Origin: a virus
Lineage: Duplodnaviria > Caudoviricetes
Virus record (IMG/VR): IMGVR_UViG_3300011008_002712
DNA length: 64,000 nucleotides
Reading direction: 5' to 3' (one strand)
Shown: positions 14,268-32,010 of the stretch, one piece after another
Layout of the letters: each line of letters starts with the position of its first letter
Numbering within the stretch: position 1 is the stretch's first letter
Notes under the pieces: model-generated
What the model saw: the letters and a program-made list of their open reading frames with translations, nothing else
What the model was told of the DNA's origin: nothing
Databases searched by the model: none
Made by a program: the position numbers and the translations under genes

Positions 14268-14300
14268 AAGAGAGAGGATTTTTAAATCCTCTCTTGTTTT
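14268..14300. terminator. Bidirectional terminator between telA and dnaE-C
   Basis: AGAGAGGATTT/AAATCCTCTCT stem flanked by A and T runs. Confidence 0.7.
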
Positions 14301-16792
14301 TATTCATTTTCTTCTAAGTTATCGCCATTTATCCATTTTTCATTAATTTTTTTCACTTTATCATGGTCTATATATTTTGCACTCAATCCGCCATAGCCTT
14401 TATCTCCAGAAATAACTAACAAATTACCTTTTTTCAAAATATCAGAATTATTTTTGTACATATCATTCCACATTGTAATTCCGACAATTTCTAAAGGTGT
14501 TATTAAAATTATTCTATAATATTCATTGCCCTTTTTCGAACGTTTTTTAACAACTTCTTTTATCAATCCTCCAATTTCAATACTATCTCCATCTTTTATG
14601 TCTTCTAAAGACTTAAGATGCTTTTTGTTTTTAAACGGATGATCAATAAAGCTAATTTCAAATGTATCTAAATCATCAAGATAACATTTAACCTTATTAA
14701 ATTTCGTTCTATATATTTTTGTTTTTGCTTTAACAAATGCATGAACAAATTTATCTTTAACTTCTTCTTTTACTACTTCAAATATACCTTTTGGTTTGCA
14801 TCTTGTTTTTTCTACATCATCAATTATTTTCCCAAATTTTTCAAGAAATGGTTCTGGAACAACAACACAATTGGGATTCTTTTTTTCTTTAATAAGTTCG
14901 TCTTCCCCAAATGCATTTAAATATTTTCCAGCAACAGTTGTCAAATCAACTAAATAATTTGGTATACTAGTTTTTGAATTTGTCTCTTGATAACTTTCAA
15001 ACCATTTCCTTTGCTGTGCTCTATTCATATAAAGCAAACAACAATCATCTTTTTCTTCTACTTTTATAAATTCTTTGCATTTATCATCTACAATATCTTT
15101 TGGAACTTGCAATGGCAAGCTTTCAAATGCCCCTATTTGAATACATACATCAACATTTCGTTTATTGTGTCCTTGGCTTCCAGTTTTTTCAAAAAATTCT
15201 TGTATCGTTGAAAATGGTTGCGCATTCATAATGTCTGCTGCGCCAGCTGCGCCCAATCCTTTTATGCAATTCAATCCCATTCTAATAGAATTATTATCGA
15301 TATTTTCTATTTTTGCTTCAAACTTACTTGCAGAAATATCCGGCGGCCTAACATCAATATTAAATGCTCTTGCTTCTTGCATGCAATTATTAAAATGTTC
15401 CAACTTCTCATTATTAAATAACACAGTAAAAAACACTAATGGATAATTTGCTTTTACCCATGCACACCAATATGCGATGTACGAATAACATACTGAGTGC
15501 GATTTGTTAAATAAATAAGCACTATTATCAATGATAGCTTGCGCTATTGTTTTACATGCTTTTTCTGGTATTCCACGTGATAATCCAGTCGGTATAACTT
15601 CTTTATTAAATTTTTCTACCCATGGTATGTTCTTCTTTTTATCAGGTTTTTCAAGTGCTCTTCTATATATATCAGCTTCACCAAAGTCAATTCCTAATAA
15701 TTCAGCAATAAGTCCCATCACTTGTTCTTGATACACTATACCACCCATCGTGGGCTCCAATATTTTATCAAATGCTGGCCAAATTTTCTTTAGTTTACTT
15801 GGATCTTTTTTTGCTGCGCAATATTCATCTAACCCAGAAGTACCAGGTCGTATAAAAGCATTTACAGCCGATAATTCTTCCATCGTACGCGGCTTTATTT
15901 TTTTTATTACAGGAACAGCTGCCGCACCATCCATTTGAAACACACCACGAAGATATTTTGCGTCACATATTAAGTCCCAAGCTTTATCGTTATCTAACGG
16001 TATAGACATCTGTTTTAAATCTTTATGATAATATTTATTGATTAAATTTAACTCATCGCAAATAATATCCATTGTGCGTAATCTAAGTATATCGTATTTC
16101 ATGCCACCAATTTGCTCTATCTCATCTTTACAATACATGCTTCTATACCATGTATTATGTGATGAAGTTTCTACAGCCGGTGCAACTGGAGTCAAATCAG
16201 TTATTTCCATATTAGATGGAGTTATTACAATTCCTGCTGGATGTTGAGATACAGATTTCGGAAGATTCATAAATGTTTTCAAATAATCTCTTAGATGATA
16301 ATTTTCATATTTATCTAAGAATTCATTCACTTCTTTAACATCTTTTATATCATCAAATGTTTTTGCATCTTTGTCAATTTTTTTAGCTGCGAAATCAACT
16401 TCTGCAAGTGGAATTTCAAAAACTCTCGCAATATCTCTCAAAGCAGCTTTTGGTTTCATATATTGAAAAGTAGCTATATTACAACAATGATTTTTACCAA
16501 ATGTTTGATTCAAAAAATCATATATTTCATCACTTCTAAGATAGGAAGTATCTCCGTCAATATCTGGTACATGACCGACTCTACGGGGATTCAAAAATCG
16601 TTCAAAAAATAAATCATACTCAAGAGGATCTACTTGAGTAATATCTAGTGCATAATTTAAAAGTGATCCAGCACCAGAATTATGCACTATTAAACCGTCA
16701 ATATTATATGAATGTACATCTTTTACTTCTAAGTCGTAAACTTTCCCTTTGTATTGAAAAGTTTTTTTAGAAGTAAGTCTTTTATATTTCAT
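14300..16792 (-). CDS. dnaE: DNA polymerase III alpha, C-terminal half, fused to C-part of a split intein
   Basis: IntC ...VYDLEV..HSYNIDGLIVHN then SGAGSLL, FERFLNP, PDIDGD, QHPAG, KYDIL, GVFQ, FNKSH, C-terminal OB fold; AAAGGA RBS before ATG 16792. Confidence 0.95.
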   Translation of the reverse strand: MKYKRLTSKKTFQYKGKVYDLEVKDVHSYNIDGLIVHNSGAGSLLNYALDITQVDPLEYDLFFERFLNPRRVGHVPDIDGDTSYLRSDEIYDFLNQTFGKNHCCNIATFQYMKPKAALRDIARVFEIPLAEVDFAAKKIDKDAKTFDDIKDVKEVNEFLDKYENYHLRDYLKTFMNLPKSVSQHPAGIVITPSNMEITDLTPVAPAVETSSHNTWYRSMYCKDEIEQIGGMKYDILRLRTMDIICDELNLINKYYHKDLKQMSIPLDNDKAWDLICDAKYLRGVFQMDGAAAVPVIKKIKPRTMEELSAVNAFIRPGTSGLDEYCAAKKDPSKLKKIWPAFDKILEPTMGGIVYQEQVMGLIAELLGIDFGEADIYRRALEKPDKKKNIPWVEKFNKEVIPTGLSRGIPEKACKTIAQAIIDNSAYLFNKSHSVCYSYIAYWCAWVKANYPLVFFTVLFNNEKLEHFNNCMQEARAFNIDVRPPDISASKFEAKIENIDNNSIRMGLNCIKGLGAAGAADIMNAQPFSTIQEFFEKTGSQGHNKRNVDVCIQIGAFESLPLQVPKDIVDDKCKEFIKVEEKDDCCLLYMNRAQQRKWFESYQETNSKTSIPNYLVDLTTVAGKYLNAFGEDELIKEKKNPNCVVVPEPFLEKFGKIIDDVEKTRCKPKGIFEVVKEEVKDKFVHAFVKAKTKIYRTKFNKVKCYLDDLDTFEISFIDHPFKNKKHLKSLEDIKDGDSIEIGGLIKEVVKKRSKKGNEYYRIILITPLEIVGITMWNDMYKNNSDILKKGNLLVISGDKGYGGLSAKYIDHDKVKKINEKWINGDNLEENE
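16679..16792 (-). mobile_element. Split intein C-fragment (38 aa)
   Basis: Block F VYDLEV, block G IVHN, Ser+1; Lys/Arg-rich. Confidence 0.92.
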
Positions 16793-16879
16793 CCATATCA
16801 TCCTTTCTTCTATTTATTTTATAAAAATTATTTTCTTTTTATAAAGAAACATCTATCAATTTCTTGAAAATTTATTTTT

Positions 16880-18580: not shown

Positions 18581-19781
18581 ATTAACACTCATTTCTATTC
18601 GCACTATCACATATAATGTATCTTCCGTCATTCAAAATCAACTTGTTATTCATCATTTTCTTTTTATTAAATTTTAATTCTTTTTCTGCCGATGTAATTG
18701 TTGGAAATTCTTTTATTAATTGATTATCACTTGAAAATAACATTACCTTTTTGCCGCCTTTATTTTTTGTGCTACAACGTTTTTGTTTACAGTGTTTTTC
18801 GTAAATTTTTTTAGAACGTTCAGTGAATTCCAAATAACATTCATTATTTATTGGCAAATGATTAATTACAATGTTTTTTAGTTCTTTTCTATTTAAATTA
18901 AATCTTTTTAGAGCTATATAAGTGTTTAAAATATAATCAATGATTTCACCATTCGAATTCACTAAATTATAGTCATATCCTGTAAAAGATTTTTCTTGTT
19001 TTTTACCGAACATTGGATTCTGTTTACCAAACATCCCGTTTTTACTGCCAGCATTTTTTCCTTTTAATTTTTCTCCTATGTTTCTTCGTTGTTCTTCATT
19101 CAAATGATTACCAAACATTGGATTTTTTGTTCCAGAATTCATTTCAACGTACTTTTTCTTATATAAAAAGTTTTCTTCTTCTGTTGGAGTTCTTGGTAAA
19201 TTGTTTATTTTTTCAATTGTGATGTTTTTTAAATGAACCAAGTCATATTCAAAATTTTTATATCCTATGATTTGAATTTCGTTATGAATAATATCATTAT
19301 TACATAAAGAAATTAATGTTTTATCTGTTGCTTTTCCAATGCATATATCACAAAAAACATTGTTCGTTAAATAATTTTTTATCAAATAAACAAAACCCAA
19401 ATAATTTTCTGGTTCTTTTATTTTATTCATTTCAAAACTATCTGGGTATGATGTTATCATTAGATGTTCTTTGTCAAATAAAATTAAATCTTCAAAACTA
19501 GAACAAAAAATAAAATTATTTAAATTTTTTAAATCTTTTCTTGTCAACAAGACATAATTTTTTAAAGAATTTTTAGCATACTGTTCTTTTTGTTTTGCAT
19601 TATCATTATAAATTCCTTTAATTTCAACAATGTTATTTTCAACTAAAAAATCTGGGTGATATGTTCTTTTTATTCCATTTTCATCAACATATTTTACTAT
19701 CCCAGTGTATCTTTTGATGTTTAATTTGTTTTTAATGCAATGATGAATAAAGCCTAATTCATAACTACTTTCAAATTTTAT
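18330..19781. repeat. 44-bp identical direct repeat (18330-18373 and 19738-19781)
   Basis: CAATGATGAATAAAGCCTAATTCATAACTACTTTCAAATTTTAT occurs in both endonuclease genes. Confidence 0.9.
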
Positions 19782-20006
19782 TCCGTAGTAATTCCCTCTC
19801 AAGTGACTTTTGGAACGATATTTCAAAATGCATTTATTGCATATTTGTTGATAACGTACATTTTGATTTCTAGAAACTAAATTTTTCCAATGTACTAATG
19901 ACTTTTGTTTACAATCTTTGCAAATTATTTCTACTAATCTATTTTGTTTTTCTGTTCTATGTTCTAAAAAATAATGATAATCAACTGTTTTCATTCTCTT
20001 CTCCAT
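18582..20006 (-). CDS. Putative homing endonuclease, paralog of 16880..18580
   Basis: FESSYE..YHPDF..IVEIKG; GTKNPMFG/GSKNGMFG repeats; IKEFPTITSAEKEL NUMOD1-like. Confidence 0.75.
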   Translation of the reverse strand: MEKRMKTVDYHYFLEHRTEKQNRLVEIICKDCKQKSLVHWKNLVSRNQNVRYQQICNKCILKYRSKSHLRGNYYGIKFESSYELGFIHHCIKNKLNIKRYTGIVKYVDENGIKRTYHPDFLVENNIVEIKGIYNDNAKQKEQYAKNSLKNYVLLTRKDLKNLNNFIFCSSFEDLILFDKEHLMITSYPDSFEMNKIKEPENYLGFVYLIKNYLTNNVFCDICIGKATDKTLISLCNNDIIHNEIQIIGYKNFEYDLVHLKNITIEKINNLPRTPTEEENFLYKKKYVEMNSGTKNPMFGNHLNEEQRRNIGEKLKGKNAGSKNGMFGKQNPMFGKKQEKSFTGYDYNLVNSNGEIIDYILNTYIALKRFNLNRKELKNIVINHLPINNECYLEFTERSKKIYEKHCKQKRCSTKNKGGKKVMLFSSDNQLIKEFPTITSAEKELKFNKKKMMNNKLILNDGRYIICDSANRNEC

Positions 20007-20130
20007 TTTTTATTTATTTTAAACATAAATTAAAAAAAAATAAAAAGAAAATTGCATTTTTGCTACAAAGTAGTATGCTTCATAATTTTTTTAATAAAAT
20101 AAATTACTTTACTGAAAGGAGCAAAAATAA

Positions 20131-20502
20131 ATGAATTTAGAACAACAAGTTAAAAACGCTGGTCCTCATGAATTGGTTTTAATGCTTTATGATGGTTGCA
20201 TTAACTTTATTGATAAGGGAGAAGAGGCACTCGTTAATAAAGACTATGAAACATCAAATAATTTTCTTCAAAGAGCAGAAAATATTTTGACAGAACTTAC
20301 TATCAATCTCGATATGAAGTATGATATTTCTAAACAATTATCTTCTCTTTATTGTTATGCTTATGATCGTTTAGTAGAAGGTAATTTGTTTAGCAAAACA
20401 TCTCTAATTGAAGAAGCAAAGAAAATTGTTTCAGAACTTAGAGATGCATGGATTCAAGCAATTAACAAAGTAACTCCAGAAGAAATTGAAGCGTTCGCAT
20501 AA
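20131..20502 (+). CDS. fliS: Flagellin export chaperone FliS homolog
   Basis: A.P.ELVLMLYDGCI, RAENILTEL..LD, L.SLY.Y...RL, ELRDAW. Confidence 0.9.
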   Translation: MNLEQQVKNAGPHELVLMLYDGCINFIDKGEEALVNKDYETSNNFLQRAENILTELTINLDMKYDISKQLSSLYCYAYDRLVEGNLFSKTSLIEEAKKIVSELRDAWIQAINKVTPEEIEAFA

Positions 20503-20520
20503 TTTTTCTCTTTATATCTA

Positions 20521-20548
20521 AAGGAGGATGCATTGCATCCTCTTTTTT
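20521..20548 (+). terminator. Intrinsic terminator after fliS
   Basis: GAGGATGCA/TGCATCCTC followed by T run. Confidence 0.7.
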
Positions 20549-20606
20549 ATTTTTAACATCAAAATTTATTTATTTTATAGAAGAAATTTTTGGGAGGCGC
20601 TTATCA

Positions 20607-21137
20607 ATGGGAAGAGTGAAAGTAGGTGTAAGAACAAAAGAACTCATTGAGAAGATTGACAAACCTCAAGAATGTCAAGAAGTTAAAAAACCGCAAGAAG
20701 AAGCTGTGCAGGAAAAACCAAAAAGAAAAATATCTTTTATAAGATGTTTTGTAAAAAACTTTGATATTCTTATGTGCTTGTTTAGAAAATTTGTACCAGA
20801 ATTCATCATAATGGCTTTGCTTGGTTTGTTTGGATTATGGGGTTTTGGTTATATAATGAATGGATTATATGGAATGGCGTTTCAATTAGATAGTAGCTTA
20901 GCTGCAGTTGGTGCCATTTCATCAGCTGGCGTTCTTTCTTTAATTAGATATTTGACAGATAGTAAATTGAACAGCGTACTGGGATCTGCTCCAACTAAAG
21001 CATTAACCGATAAACTTAATAGATATATAGCTGGTAAAGATCATTTTGTTGATGAAAACAAAAATGGAATAGATGATAGAAAAGAATGCAATGAATTTCC
21101 TGGAAAGAAAGACATGAACTATAAGGATGGTGAATGA
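20607..21137 (+). CDS. Two-TM membrane protein, probable holin
   Basis: Two hydrophobic segments; directly upstream of amidase. Confidence 0.55.
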   Translation: MGRVKVGVRTKELIEKIDKPQECQEVKKPQEEAVQEKPKRKISFIRCFVKNFDILMCLFRKFVPEFIIMALLGLFGLWGFGYIMNGLYGMAFQLDSSLAAVGAISSAGVLSLIRYLTDSKLNSVLGSAPTKALTDKLNRYIAGKDHFVDENKNGIDDRKECNEFPGKKDMNYKDGE

Positions 21138-21669
21138 TATGTCAAGTTGTTTGATAAATGCTGGACATCATGTAACATACGACGCGGGAGCCGTCTCTCC
21201 AAGGACTGGCCTTAGAGAAACAGATGTAGCATTAAAAGTAAGCAATCTAATTGTTGATTATCTAAATGCTGCTGGCGTATATTCTCAACAATTTCAAGCA
21301 AATGAATTAGATGAAATCACAGATTATGCTAATAACAATGAATTTGATTTATTTGTAAGCATTCATTGTAATGCTGCTAGTAATTATTCTGCACAAGGCA
21401 CTGAAACTTGGTATTATCAAGGAAGCAGCAACAGCCAACATCTGGCTTCTTGTATTCAAGATCAAATTATAAATTCATTACCTGTTACTGATAGAGGAAT
21501 CAAACCAACTACAGGATTATATGTGCTTAAACATACAGATATGCCAGCAGCTTTGGTAGAATTGGCATTTATAACAAACGAATACGATGAAAGTCTTTTA
21601 TCAAATGATCATTATATAGATGAATTTGCAAGAGCTATTGCTCGAGGAATTACTGATGCGTTACAATAA
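21127..21669 (+). CDS. N-acetylmuramoyl-L-alanine amidase (Amidase_3), probable endolysin
   Basis: INAGH, E, FVSIHCNAA, GTETWY, LYVLKHTDMPAALVELAFITN. Confidence 0.92.
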   Translation: MVNDMSSCLINAGHHVTYDAGAVSPRTGLRETDVALKVSNLIVDYLNAAGVYSQQFQANELDEITDYANNNEFDLFVSIHCNAASNYSAQGTETWYYQGSSNSQHLASCIQDQIINSLPVTDRGIKPTTGLYVLKHTDMPAALVELAFITNEYDESLLSNDHYIDEFARAIARGITDALQ

Positions 21670-21679
21670 TGTATAAATA

Positions 21680-21705
21680 AAAAGAGGGAATTTTCCCTCT
21701 TTTTT
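21680..21705 (+). terminator. Intrinsic terminator after amidase
   Basis: AAAAGAGGGAA/TTCCCTCTTTT followed by T run. Confidence 0.7.
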
Positions 21706-21714
21706 CTTTTTTAA

Positions 21715-21746
21715 CTATTTACATTTATTTTTTTTTATGATAAAAT
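21715..21746 (+). promoter_or_regulatory. SigA-type promoter, CTA-extended class
   Basis: CTA-TTTACA-N17-TAAAAT with TG. Confidence 0.7.
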
Positions 21747-21759
21747 TGCATTAGAAAGG

Positions 21760-22578
21760 ATGATTAAAATGATTATTGGAAGCCACTTATCTACATCTAA
21801 AGGGTTTTTTAAAATGGCACAAAACGCCGTTAATATGAATGCCAATACTTTTGCGTTTTTTATTCGCAATCCTCGTGGATTTAGCGCAAAGGTTATAGAC
21901 AAGGATGATGCAAAAAGAATGAATGATTTATTAAAAGAATATAATTTTGGTAAATTGGTTGTGCACGCTCCCTATACATTGAATTTGTGTTCAAATGACA
22001 AAAAAATCTTAGAGGTTTTTAAGGATGATTTACAAAGGATGGAAAATTTTCCTGGTAATTACTACAACCTCCATCCAGGAACTCACGGTGGGAAAGGAGA
22101 AATGACAGGCATCATCAATGTTATTTGCAATTTAAACGATGCTCTTACCAGTGACTTGAATACTATCGTCCTTATTGAGACAATGGCTGGAAAAGGCACC
22201 GAAATCGGCAAGACATTTAAAGAAATAAAAAATATGATTTCTGGAGTTAAGTTAAAAGATAAGATTGGAGTCTGCCTTGATACATGCCATGCTTGGGATG
22301 CTGGATATGACATGAGAAACATAGACACTGTGCTGGAAGAATTCGATAAAGTAATAGGTATAGATTATTTAAAAGCAGTACATTTAAATGATAGTAAGAA
22401 CGAGATGGGCTCTCATAAGGATCGTCACGCTCAATTGGGTGAAGGCAAAATCGGATTAGAAGCACTAACCAAAATTGTCAATCATAAACATCTTAAAAAA
22501 TTGCCATTTATTTTGGAGACACCAAATGTTTCTATGCACGCTGGAGAAATTGCTTTGATGAGGCAACGAGAAGTTTAA
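21760..22578 (+). CDS. nfo: Endonuclease IV (AP endonuclease)
   Basis: GSHLS, HAPY, HPG, ETMAGKG, DTCH, HLNDSK, DRH, ILETP. Confidence 0.95.
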   Translation: MIKMIIGSHLSTSKGFFKMAQNAVNMNANTFAFFIRNPRGFSAKVIDKDDAKRMNDLLKEYNFGKLVVHAPYTLNLCSNDKKILEVFKDDLQRMENFPGNYYNLHPGTHGGKGEMTGIINVICNLNDALTSDLNTIVLIETMAGKGTEIGKTFKEIKNMISGVKLKDKIGVCLDTCHAWDAGYDMRNIDTVLEEFDKVIGIDYLKAVHLNDSKNEMGSHKDRHAQLGEGKIGLEALTKIVNHKHLKKLPFILETPNVSMHAGEIALMRQREV

Positions 22579-22703
22579 AAATGAAAACTAAAATTAGAAT
22601 GAATGTATAAGAGTTTTTATAACGGGAGAATTTATAGTTTTTCACGTTATTAATTGACTATGCCGTTTGACTATCATAATTTATGTAAAATGGAGGTTTT
22701 TAA

Positions 22704-23237
22704 ATGAAAAAAATGTTTTCTATCAAGAATATAGCAGCAATTATGTTGTGTGTAATTACAATGATAGTTTCTGCTTGTGGTGGACATCCAGTAGAAGAAT
22801 GGCCTGAATATAAAGATGCGAAAAAATCATACGATACGTGGTTTTATTGCTGGACAGAAAAATTTAATGGTAAAGACATTCATATTGATAGCAGAATAAA
22901 ATCAGTTAATTTTAAACCTTCAGCTAATATTTCTGGAAATTTAGAAATGAGTGGATTATTCTTTGTTGGACGAGGACAAATAGACTCAACTGATTATTAT
23001 TATGTATATCAAGAAGTCGATCCTGATAAGTATAAATTAGTTAAAATACCTGCTGATGAGACTATCATTTTAGAAACAAATGAAATCTCTCCAAGTATTG
23101 CTGCTGAGTATGATTTTGAATTTGATTTAAATTTATATTATGACTGGAAACATGGTCATTATTCATTCACAAAGAATAACCTTATAATAGTACCAAAAGA
23201 TACTGTTATACAAGAATTTAATGTACAAAATATTTGA
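22704..23237 (+). CDS. Lipoprotein of unknown function
   Basis: Basic-hydrophobic signal peptide with lipobox VSAC; GGAGG RBS. Confidence 0.75.
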   Translation: MKKMFSIKNIAAIMLCVITMIVSACGGHPVEEWPEYKDAKKSYDTWFYCWTEKFNGKDIHIDSRIKSVNFKPSANISGNLEMSGLFFVGRGQIDSTDYYYVYQEVDPDKYKLVKIPADETIILETNEISPSIAAEYDFEFDLNLYYDWKHGHYSFTKNNLIIVPKDTVIQEFNVQNI

Positions 23238-23371
23238 ATAAAGAAAAATTTTGGTACATAATTGGGCTGGTTTTGCTATCATTTGTATATGCATTGACTA
23301 GCCCAATTATACGCGTTTATGCGCAAGTTTTCTTGGGGGCTATTTTAGCAATTATTTTTGTAGAAATTTAA
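23234..23371 (+). CDS. Small 45-aa hydrophobic protein (not in ORF track)
   Basis: TTG overlapping upstream TGA; MNKEKFWYIIGLVLLSFVYALTSPIIRVYAQVFLGAILAIIFVEI. Confidence 0.45.
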   Translation: MNKEKFWYIIGLVLLSFVYALTSPIIRVYAQVFLGAILAIIFVEI

Positions 23372-23519
23372 GTAGAATATTGCATAATGATTCAATGCAT
23401 AGTAAACTTTACAATGTAATGCACAGACTGTTACATATACAAAATTTTAAAAAATAAATTATAAAAACGACGTTTATTTATAATAAAATGTTATTATAAA
23501 TGATAGGAGATAATTAATA

Positions 23520-23960
23520 ATGAAAAAACATTTGATACGTCGTAAAACAGCTTCAATATTGGAAAAACTTAACATTGATACTAATGATGTTAGATTTATA
23601 GGCAAAAATGAAGATGCCACTGTCGATAATGAATTTAAAGTTATTGATTTTTTTAACGATTTAAATGATGAAGATAAGCAACATGCAGTAAGCATAATGA
23701 ACAATGAATATCACAATAGATTTAAAGATTCTACAACTATTAACCTTCGCGAAGCATATTTGATATTGAAAACCTTAGGTGATAACAAAAATTTACCAAT
23801 TTGGAAAAATGTTATTGGTAAGTTAGAACCATTTTATTACTATTCTTGTTCCACGGATTTATTTAATGACGAATCTTTTAATTGGTTTACAAAAGATGAT
23901 TTAATTGAATACATTGATCCAAAAACTGGAGATTATTATGAAGAATACAAATTGCAATGA
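23520..23960 (+). CDS. Hypothetical protein with basic N-terminal motif
   Basis: MKKHLIRRKTAS then acidic body; AGGAG RBS. Confidence 0.7.
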   Translation: MKKHLIRRKTASILEKLNIDTNDVRFIGKNEDATVDNEFKVIDFFNDLNDEDKQHAVSIMNNEYHNRFKDSTTINLREAYLILKTLGDNKNLPIWKNVIGKLEPFYYYSCSTDLFNDESFNWFTKDDLIEYIDPKTGDYYEEYKLQ

Positions 23961-24034
23961 AAAACAATGATAGTACTTATTTTATGCTATACAAATATTA
24001 TTAAATAAATTTGTTTAACAATTTTTTTATTTAA

Positions 24035-24065
24035 CTATTTACATTTTATTGTTTTACTGTATAAT
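24035..24065 (+). promoter_or_regulatory. SigA-type promoter, CTA-extended class
   Basis: CTA-TTTACA-N16-TATAAT. Confidence 0.6.
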
Positions 24066-24082
24066 ATTAAATAAGAAAGAAG

Positions 24083-24586
24083 TTGGCAATGATGTTTAAA
24101 ACATTAACTAATAAAGTTAAACAAAAATACATTGATTTCGGAAATTTTGTTATTAAAAAAATTTTAAACAACAACTATAAAAATATTTGCGTTTTTGGAA
24201 CATGCTCAGATGATATCAACAACATGGGATGGATAAAATCTATGTATCATTTGCAAGAACTTGATGATGCAACTTTTTATGCGGCATTAAATAAAAATGG
24301 TAAAACTTTAGAGAACATTGTTGATTACGACATGGTAATTCTTCTTGATTTGAAATTTAATAATGATAAGTTTGATATTTCATTCGAAATGATTTCGTCT
24401 AATGATATTGGAATAAATAGCAATGTACCTGTTATTCAACTTCATTATATGTTAAATGATGACAAATTTGAAATTGAAAGAGATTGTAATCTATTTTCTG
24501 ATGGTATTTCTGACGTTACTTTTATAAAAAGTCAAAAATATAGGAAAATTCCAAATGAATTAACAAAACAAGAACTTTTAAATTAA
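24083..24586 (+). CDS. Hypothetical protein, paralog family A copy 1
   Basis: WIKSM(Y/F)H, GKTLENI.DYDMVILL, SDGIS shared with next two genes. Confidence 0.8.
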   Translation: MAMMFKTLTNKVKQKYIDFGNFVIKKILNNNYKNICVFGTCSDDINNMGWIKSMYHLQELDDATFYAALNKNGKTLENIVDYDMVILLDLKFNNDKFDISFEMISSNDIGINSNVPVIQLHYMLNDDKFEIERDCNLFSDGISDVTFIKSQKYRKIPNELTKQELLN

Positions 24587-30510: not shown

Positions 30511-32010
30511 TTAAATTTCACATATAACATCATTAATTTCTAACTTATCGGCTTCAATCCATTGAGGAATTCTTATGCCATTATCAAAGTCTTTAGCTTT
30601 TATTGCTAAGATTTTATGATCTTTTGTGACACCATCAATCATTTTATCTTCAATTTGAAGTTGTAATAACTTTTCGTCTACATCATAAATAAATTTATTA
30701 ACAACTTCATGAAGTTTTTCATCTTTAGCATAGACAAGCTCACCAACATTTACGTCTCTAATTTGTTTTAACCCATACTGGGTTAAAACAAAATTATTAT
30801 CTTTAAAGCAACCCCTTCCAGGACCACATGGTATTTTAGCTTTATTTCTAATAAAATCAATTAAGCTTCCATATAAAATGAAATATGTCTCAAATCCCAT
30901 CTCTTTAATGACTTTCATTTCATGTGCAGCTCTAATTCTATCTTTTTTTGATTGTGCTCGTTTTTTTGTCAACCCATTAAGAAAAAGATATTCAAGATAT
31001 TTAGTTTTTTCTAACTCTTTTCCTCTAGATTCTTTTGATTTTTCTTTCCACTCATTATAAACACTATCATTTTTTGGTATTTCTACACTTGGCAAATAAT
31101 GAACGTCTGTAACAAATTCAACACTACATTGTTTTGCTATATCTTCAGAAAATTCAACAGCACTTAAAACCGCTTTTTGATCTAAAACTTCGTGACCAGA
31201 ACATTTAAATGCATTTAAAATTTCATCTTTTGTCATAATATAATAAGTATTCCCGCCATAAGTCCATCTATCTGGATTTGACATGACATCTTTACTCTGC
31301 ATGCAAAGAAGCACATCATGAGCTTCTTTGTGTTCTTGAGTCAAATAATGCGCATCTGTTGTAGCAACTAGTGGTATACCCATTTCTTTTGACAATTCTA
31401 TCAGCACTTTATTTACGATAACTTGATGTTCTATTGCTGTTGGCTGTATTTCTAAATAAAAATTACCATGAAATAATTTATGATAATATTCAATCCATTT
31501 TTTTGCTCCAACTATATCATCATTCATGATGCAACGTGGAATTCTACCAGCAATGCACGCAGACGTCGCTATTAAATCGTCAGTACCAATATCTTCAAGA
31601 CATTTATCGTCAATCCTTGCTTTATAGTAAAAACCTTTTGTTGCAGCTAAAGATGCCAATTTAGAAATTCTTTTATAACCTTCTATATTTTTTGCAAGAA
31701 TTATCATATGCTCATTCTTATATTGACGATAATGTTCAATGTCTTTATTATTCATATCATCTGTTACATAAAATTCTTCTCCAATAATTGGAATTACATC
31801 ATTTTTTTTAGCTTCATTATAATGAAACATAACAGCATATAAATTTCCATGATCTGTTATGCAACTATATACTTGGTGAGTTTCTCCAGTTTTTTTATTA
31901 AATTCATCTGTAATTTCTTTATTACGTCTTACTAAATCTTCTAACCTAAGGCAAGAATCCAATAAAGAATATTGAGAATGAACATGTAAATTGACAAAAT
32001 TATTGGACAT
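30511..32010 (-). CDS. dnaE: DNA polymerase III alpha, N-terminal half (PHP domain), fused to N-part of a split intein
   Basis: FVNLHVHSQYSLLD, ITDHGNLY, ATTDAHY, MGFETYF, CGPGRG then intein CFKDNNFV. Confidence 0.95.
   Translation of the reverse strand: MSNNFVNLHVHSQYSLLDSCLRLEDLVRRNKEITDEFNKKTGETHQVYSCITDHGNLYAVMFHYNEAKKNDVIPIIGEEFYVTDDMNNKDIEHYRQYKNEHMIILAKNIEGYKRISKLASLAATKGFYYKARIDDKCLEDIGTDDLIATSACIAGRIPRCIMNDDIVGAKKWIEYYHKLFHGNFYLEIQPTAIEHQVIVNKVLIELSKEMGIPLVATTDAHYLTQEHKEAHDVLLCMQSKDVMSNPDRWTYGGNTYYIMTKDEILNAFKCSGHEVLDQKAVLSAVEFSEDIAKQCSVEFVTDVHYLPSVEIPKNDSVYNEWKEKSKESRGKELEKTKYLEYLFLNGLTKKRAQSKKDRIRAAHEMKVIKEMGFETYFILYGSLIDFIRNKAKIPCGPGRGCFKDNNFVLTQYGLKQIRDVNVGELVYAKDEKLHEVVNKFIYDVDEKLLQLQIEDKMIDGVTKDHKILAIKAKDFDNGIRIPQWIEADKLEINDVICEI
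30514..30810 (-). mobile_element. Split intein N-fragment (99 aa)
   Basis: Cys1 CFKDNNFVLT..G.KQI.DV.VGE.V, block B TKDH, WIEADKLEIND then stop. Confidence 0.92.

Follow-up and report, generated by a model that had tools for sequence, protein, structure and literature searches.

The presence of fliS, the gene for a flagellin chaperone, in a bacteriophage genome raises the question of what such a protein would do for the phage. The window, which is the whole stretch of 64,000 nucleotides analyzed here, corresponds to bases 95,998-159,997 of a 416,024-bp IMG/VR record, read on the reverse strand. We propose that the phage protein may act as a flagellin trap, incapable of docking, and so stop filament export, a reading to which we give about an even chance. 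The FliS chaperone itself is well understood; what appears to be new, as judged from the sequence, is a phage-borne FliS that specifically lacks the element for docking at the export gate.

The product of the open reading frame at 20131-20502 is a member of the FliS family, far above chance. It matches the Pfam FliS profile PF02561 with an E-value of 5.4e-32 (110.9 bits, cut-off 26.7) and the NCBIfam equivalog TIGR00208 with an E-value of 1.2e-24 (86.8 bits, cut-off 53.75), while the PHROGs contain no FliS family (best match E 0.083). The alignments start at position 6 of 115 in the Pfam profile and 13 of 124 in TIGR00208, indicating a short N-terminus. An in-frame stop codon abuts the start codon and thus excludes a longer N-terminus, and translation of the 120 nt upstream of fliS revealed no FliS-like remnant in any frame. 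The hairpin and T-run downstream of the gene, which the terminator scan placed at 20520-20546, close a one-gene unit (Table 1). Terminator-like sites number five in the 5-kb region around fliS, compared with 1.3 expected from shuffles, and a sequence scan upstream of the gene found no consensus sigma-70-like promoter. The preliminary description of this locus had read a FliS homologue at 20131-20502, encoded as a single-gene unit with a ribosome-binding site and a terminator. Family matches, fold and exact coordinates agree with that reading, and both signals can be read in the sequence.

Table 1. Features of the fliS region in window coordinates, and FliS proteins that lack the N-terminal tyrosine.
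Feature	Position	Strand	Description
fliS homologue	20131-20502	+	123 aa, N-terminus MNLEQQV; Pfam, TIGR00208, alignment, AF2 model
Ribosome-binding site GAAAGGAG	20114-20121	+	9 nt 5' of the ATG; direct sequence reading
In-frame TAA	20128-20130	+	Abuts the fliS start codon; sequence
Terminator-like hairpin	20520-20556	+	12-bp stem, 3-nt loop, then T-run; terminator scan, sequence
DnaE (Pol III alpha) halves	14300-16801 and 30511-32010	both -	13.7 kb apart, fliS between
Two paralogous ORFs, 583 and 474 aa	16880-18631 and 18582-20006	both -	NUMOD3 motifs
176-aa protein without family, then overlapping 180-aa Amidase_3 start	20607-21669	+	Directly after fliS
AP endonuclease, Nfo/xylose-isomerase-like TIM-barrel	21760-22578	+	PF01261, 5e-49
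473-aa match to phage alpha-glucosyltransferase	36045-37466	-	phrog_2888, 1.9e-79
Tyr-less FliS, orphan: 416-kb phage			
Tyr-less FliS, orphan: P0109, P0113			On 20-25% G+C contigs of co-directional ORFans
Tyr-less FliS, orphan: P0121			Partial; truncated or chimeric at C-terminus after about residue 95
Tyr-less FliS, orphan: P0190			Beside AAA/DUF3150/DUF1257 genes
Tyr-less FliS, orphan: P0107			On 59.8-kb, 61% G+C IMG/VR record with direct terminal repeats
Tyr-less FliS, flagellar locus: P0138	L021:175-986		Two tandem FliS (118, 145 aa) before FliD-like; first copy Tyr-less
Tyr-less FliS, flagellar loci: P0203, P0122			

The 416-kb record is a phage, a rumen-type myovirus. CheckV rates it 99% complete, and its IMG/VR class is 'provirus'. 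It encodes a terminase large subunit (phrog_2, 1.6e-31) and, by PHROG family matches, a tail sheath and a baseplate wedge; the Pfam family Phage_sheath_1 has no match in the record. A tmRNA (tag ANEEYAIAA) is followed by 12 clustered tRNA genes at G000:C1:240720-256453, and the G+C content is about 30% throughout. Comparison of the window with phage families revealed a replication module of DnaE, topoisomerase II, NAD ligase, RecJ, DnaB and SbcC. Searches of the whole record for the flagellin N domain, the flagellin C domain and CsrA returned no match, and tblastx with a 12-gene late flagellar operon from Mitsuokella found a counterpart to FliS alone. The absence of other flagellar genes, previously remarked for the neighbourhood of fliS, thus extends across the 416-kb record.

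Nearly all genes in the window lie on the minus strand. A plus-strand island at 20131-24586, where the GC skew flips, begins with fliS and has one half of a split dnaE on either side. The genes around fliS encode homing-endonuclease-like proteins, a membrane protein, an amidase and an AP endonuclease, and do not form a late flagellar operon. The N-half of DnaE matches positions 41-406 of phrog_405 and the C-half positions 407-1074, with a weak Intein_splicing match at residues 6-41 of the C-half; by sequence the split dnaE looks like a split intein or a 'fractured gene'. The paralogous 583- and 474-aa ORFs have N-terminal parts that are PD-(D/E)XK or endonuclease-I-like, have a 120-nt stretch in common at 83% identity, and are probable free-standing homing endonucleases adjoining the dnaE C-half. 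The 176-aa protein and the Amidase_3 gene after fliS are a possible holin-endolysin pair, closed by a strong terminator at 21679-21704. In a diverged lineage of the phage (contig L003) the amidase frame is only 143 aa long and the AP endonuclease is reduced to 219 aa. The alpha-glucosyltransferase match elsewhere in the window hints at glucosylated DNA.

The position of fliS bears on whether the gene has a function at all. An opposite-strand island in a split dnaE, beside two homing-endonuclease-like genes, looks like an insertion-prone region, and one related protein from another contig (P0121 in Table 1) is damaged at its C-terminus, both of which would suit a decaying passenger gene. The gene itself argues otherwise. 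Its frame is intact and its ribosome-binding site and terminator are present. The identical FliS protein occurs in the same gene order on seven contigs from several metagenomes. In the diverged lineage fliS differs at two of 372 nt, both of them synonymous third-codon positions, whereas the flanking 7.7 kb differ by 2.6% and the flanks further out by 6-8%. The GC3 of fliS is 0.18, which is phage-like, compared with 0.64-0.78 in fliS of the donor clade, so that base composition is fully ameliorated. The identical protein, the synonymous-only changes and the phage-like GC3 together indicate an old resident gene; by these sequence comparisons, phage fliS was not captured recently and does not stem from chimeric assembly. 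Considering in addition that related FliS proteins outside flagellar loci, at 43-47% identity, retain intact FliS cores, we see hardly any probability that fliS is a functionless passenger.

The closest relatives of the phage protein are Selenomonadaceae FliS, at 52-56% identity. In a survey of 5.8 billion proteins the nearest matches are 52-55% identical to it and 130-143 aa long if near full length, and the named ones are Mitsuokella or Negativicutes FliS. The best 35 matches in reference genomes all come from Selenomonadaceae or unclassified Selenomonadales-type MAGs and include the genera Selenomonas, Mitsuokella, Quinella and Schwartzia, with Anaerovibrio within the next four; rumen MAGs make up most of the best reference-genome matches. 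Alignment with the 13 closest aligned homologues (131-140 aa) revealed that these carry 7-11 extra N-terminal residues, including a tyrosine. The N-terminus of the relatives reads MVN(x)AAEAY-KRQQ..., and the AEAY-type tyrosine is conserved. Phage FliS starts one residue before the tyrosine column and has Asn2 in that column, where 13 of 13 aligned homologues have tyrosine. When the 80 nearest named bacterial genomes were put through a crude motif check, 79 showed the N-terminal tyrosine; in the remaining one the start call is over-extended. All 78 metagenome loci examined keep the tyrosine save for two cut genes. In an ungapped alignment residue 5 of phage FliS lies opposite residue 13 of B. 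subtilis FliS; numbered after the B. subtilis protein, phage FliS would in effect be a natural Δ1-8, Y10N variant. The shortened N-terminus without tyrosine that was first noticed from the reading frame is therefore borne out, by Asn2 in the tyrosine column and by the stop codon upstream. The possibility that the nearest bacterial FliS proteins might be equally short, which would have made this feature unremarkable, is answered by the alignment and the tyrosine survey: they are longer.

The two ends of the protein and the setting of its gene also differ from those of its relatives. The C-terminal tail is acidic in phage FliS and basic or glycine-rich in aligned bacterial FliS. The 23 bacterial genome loci inspected have fliS in the context fliW-csrA-flaG-fliD-fliS-fliT, often followed by flagellin, and the same context was found in almost every metagenome locus of sufficient length. 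Flagellated Selenomonadaceae are the source of all the nearest relatives, which fits the flagellated host suggested in the preliminary description, and fliS suggests as the probable host or former host a flagellated rumen bacterium of the Selenomonadaceae type.

In bacterial FliS the segment missing from the phage protein has a defined role. According to a study on Salmonella, residues Ile7, Tyr10 and Val13 of the N-terminal helix insert into a cleft of FlhA, and Tyr10, there termed absolutely conserved, is essential for the complex with FlhA_C (PMC5932034). Unbound FliS keeps the helix buried in an autoinhibitory position, from which flagellin displaces it (PMC5932034). In B. subtilis the fliS variants Δ2-18 and Y7A,Y10A have the phenotype of a ΔfliS strain in swarming and flagellin secretion (PMC6070490). 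The missing segment had initially been taken as a cap over the flagellin-binding pocket; the cap role stands, and that it is a cap alone does not, as both reports describe it also as the FlhA docking helix (PMC5932034, PMC6070490). Since the missing helix is the FlhA docking element and bears the essential tyrosine, the specific prediction is a protein that binds flagellin and cannot deliver it. We infer this loss of FlhA docking in a Negativicutes-type FliS by analogy with contacts mapped in Salmonella and Bacillus.

These roles also bear on the simplest reading of the gene, that phage FliS is an ordinary export chaperone that still hands over flagellin through a different surface and sustains or increases the motility of the infected host. 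The protein passes the equivalog cut-off of TIGR00208, and HDX data from B. subtilis suggest that flagellin itself also contacts FlhA-C (PMC6070490). However, the B. subtilis variants that lack the helix or its tyrosines are null and Tyr10 of Salmonella FliS is essential for FlhA_C binding, and the nearest named bacterial FliS proteins keep the tyrosine by motif check. We consider this reading very unlikely.

The AF2 model of phage FliS is a four-helix bundle with a mean pLDDT of 85. Its helices span residues 12-35, 39-60, 71-87 and 90-113, and the N-terminal helix is only a 7-residue stub (3-9). The best Foldseek matches were B. subtilis FliS from the flagellin complex, 6GOW_E and 5MAW_E, with TM-scores of 0.81-0.91 and an rmsd of 1.7-1.8 Å, and the first 15 matches were all FliS or flagellar chaperone entries. 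Residues 360-455 of Selenomonas ruminantium flagellin, as a stand-in for the host protein, were used as partner for complex prediction. Flagellins of Selenomonas and Mitsuokella have a nearly invariant C-terminal stretch of 50 residues, and which of them stands in should therefore matter little. ESMFold2 gave the complex a score of 0.81, compared with 0.00 for the best of three controls; this is a textbook pair with solved complexes, and the score may therefore reflect likeness to known flagellin binders and is no proof of binding. Among 80 solved complexes 58 attain the mark applied to this score, as do 2 of 110 mismatched pairs. At least 77% of contacts are shared between runs, the partner pLDDT is at least 66, and the interface lies on flagellin at residues 412-455. 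Phage FliS still looks like a flagellin binder in these models.

Another reading of the fold is that the bundle has been repurposed for a new partner, which could be host FlgM, a different flagellar regulator of the host, or phage proteins whose C-termini are helical. FliS interacts with FlgM in Salmonella. With the N-terminal plug missing the pocket should be constitutively open, the acidic C-terminal tail sets the phage protein apart from bacterial FliS, and 34 of the 526 predicted phage proteins end in G[LIM] after a hydrophobic helix. A role for FliS as reader of the Gly-Leu endings was also considered, but these bear no likeness to the flagellin C-terminus and are absent on the other contigs that carry FliS outside flagellar loci. 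The probability of a repurposed binder appears distinctly low, considering that the core is 52-56% identical to true FliS and that flagellin is docked to it with high model confidence.

Whether loss of the tyrosine is peculiar to this phage was addressed with the best 150 representatives of 3,644 FliS homologues found in 1.84 billion proteins. About 136 of the 150 have the tyrosine, seven are N-terminal fragments, and seven are full-length proteins without it. Including the phage protein and an IMG/VR match, six Tyr-less FliS proteins lie outside any flagellar context, hereafter orphans, and three lie inside flagellar loci (Table 1). As P0138, P0203 and P0122 belong to bacterial flagellar loci, loss of the tyrosine is not unique to orphans. 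P0121, being truncated or chimeric, was handled as partial. The tyrosine is absent in six of six orphans, and there is no orphan among the approximately 100 Tyr-bearing loci that were checked. Its loss in all six orphans suggests that the loss was selected and not accidental.

In a maximum-likelihood tree of about 120 columns, which is weakly resolved, phage FliS groups with P0109, P0113 and P0121 (SH-aLRT 93), nested in Selenomonadaceae-like FliS (98). P0107 falls elsewhere in the tree, implying a second, independent capture and loss of the tyrosine. The record that carries P0107 (G001, with loci L108-L110) is 59,782 bp long, has direct repeats at its termini and a completeness rating of 100%. 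Its ten largest genes belong to no PHROG family, neither a terminase nor another hallmark gene was found in the record, and a Pfam search of ten of its genes, seven of them among the ten largest, returned only a DNA methylase, a weak BNR and a weak radical-SAM match. On three related orphan contigs that are candidate phage sequences (L012, L015 and L020) the neighbours of fliS have no Pfam or PHROG match, and ten neighbours on L012 and L015 likewise have no PHROG match. Comparison of the orphan contigs with the proteome of the 416-kb phage by blastx found FliS as the only match, and IMG/VR scans with a neighbour protein from an orphan contig and with P0109 returned no match. A metagenome scan with an alignment of the orphan clade gave as its best 80 matches only bacterial, Tyr-bearing, operon-embedded FliS. 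Together these sequence comparisons suggest at least two separate captures of orphan FliS, with two copies in viral records.

The consistent loss of the tyrosine also bears on a protective holdase, a reading in which phage FliS keeps flagellin soluble and unpolymerised after infection has disturbed export, and in which a block of the flagellum is not the purpose. The benefit would be that flagellin aggregates do not disorder the cytoplasm in which the phage replicates. The predicted evidence for binding, from Foldseek and the complex model, is the same as for a trap. FliS keeps cytoplasmic flagellin from aggregating (PMC6070490), and restricting cytoplasmic Hag matters for the organisation of the B. 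subtilis cytoplasm, as reported in PMC6529632. A holdase would, however, leave unexplained why every orphan has lost the tyrosine, since an intact FliS would do just as well and the host FliS is already there. We regard it as unlikely.

We therefore return to the trap as the preferred reading. Under this proposal fliS would have been captured long ago from a Selenomonadaceae-type bacterium and would have become a stand-alone gene in the 416-kb myovirus. Its product has kept the four-helix body, predicted to enfold flagellin over its C-terminal ~44 residues, and lacks the N-terminal helix residues and the tyrosine for docking at the FlhA export gate. With the autoinhibitory plug gone, its pocket may be constitutively open. 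Phage FliS would compete with host FliS for newly made flagellin and form complexes that the export gate refuses, and filament export would slow or stop as a result of this competitive flagellin sink. A second effect may follow in bacteria such as the donor clade, where fliW and csrA lie next to fliS. In the B. subtilis model, FliW sits on flagellin until export and is then released to antagonise CsrA (PMC6070490). If flagellin were retained in the cytoplasm, FliW would stay bound and CsrA would be free, so that flagellin translation would be repressed; through this loop the synthesis of an abundant protein would fall too. Three steps of this scheme are inferred: that flagellin is bound in vivo, that the effect is dominant-negative, and that FliW and CsrA respond as described.

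Candidate gains for the phage are saved resources, fewer flagella that could serve as phage receptors or traps, and an ordered cytoplasm; the preliminary description had put forward superinfection exclusion, energy saving or altered motility, which would likewise be candidate purposes. A point against the trap is that a block of export leaves the already built filament in place, so that a gain within one lytic cycle is questionable. We further put forward, more tentatively and as something that falls short of probable, that such phage 'decoy chaperones' are recurrent, with at least two unrelated lineages having captured FliS from different bacteria and lost its tyrosine, and with a dominant-negative trap that also silences flagellin translation via FliW-CsrA.

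If the trap is real, phages would shut down the flagellum at the step of protein delivery by means of a 123-residue protein, and the FliW-CsrA feedback would mean that assembly and synthesis of the filament are both disabled. Phage FliS would also be a natural tool for uncoupling flagellin binding from export-gate docking. As the missing element has a defined, experimentally tested job, the prediction is a sharp one: the protein should bind flagellin, should not bind FlhA, and should inhibit filament export when co-expressed.

A survey of fliS in phage genomes had been suggested in the preliminary description, and it yielded no bona fide FliS among 50,697 deposited phage records. A tblastn search of these records with FliS returned five matches, all human faecal scaffolds labelled 'UNVERIFIED: Bacteriophage sp.' (L102-L106; GenBank MT836588, MT836129, MT837262, MT835518 and MT835713). 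These were rejected as phage FliS, as two carry fliW-csrA-flaG-fliD-fliS and three have fliS beside flagellin; from their sequence they appear to be bacterial DNA that ended up in a virome data set. When the 12-kb surroundings of fliS were compared with deposited phages by megablast, no match was obtained, and a full-text literature search found no description of a phage-encoded or jumbo-phage FliS.

Compared with known systems, the phage protein is alike in family (PF02561, TIGR00208) and four-helix fold to bacterial FliS, as represented by 5MAW and 6GOW from B. subtilis, 1ORY from Aquifex and the Salmonella FliS-FliC-FlhA_C complex, 6CH3. The way in which it is predicted to wrap the last ~44 residues of flagellin also agrees with bacterial FliS. 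It differs from bacterial FliS in that it lacks 7-11 N-terminal residues and the docking tyrosine, stands outside a fliD-fliS-fliT operon and has an acidic tail. The closest natural precedent for a phage that acts on host flagellin is the temperate Enterobacter phage FRphi, with a TldR RNA-guided repressor and FliC_P (PMC13418256). However, FRphi acts on transcription and brings its own flagellin, whereas the 416-kb phage has no flagellin gene; the FRphi paper makes no mention of FliS or any chaperone (PMC13418256). A natural antagonist is known from C. jejuni, where FlaG competes with FliS-flagellin for FlhA and limits filament growth (PMC11536152). FlaG is a host protein at the gate, whereas phage FliS would intervene at the preceding step, by tying up flagellin. 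The closest parallels are laboratory alleles: B. subtilis fliS Δ2-18 and Y7A,Y10A and the Salmonella Tyr10 mutants remove the same element that is missing from phage FliS. Those docking mutants replaced the wild type as loss-of-function alleles, whereas phage FliS would accompany an intact host FliS, and any effect that it has must therefore be competitive.
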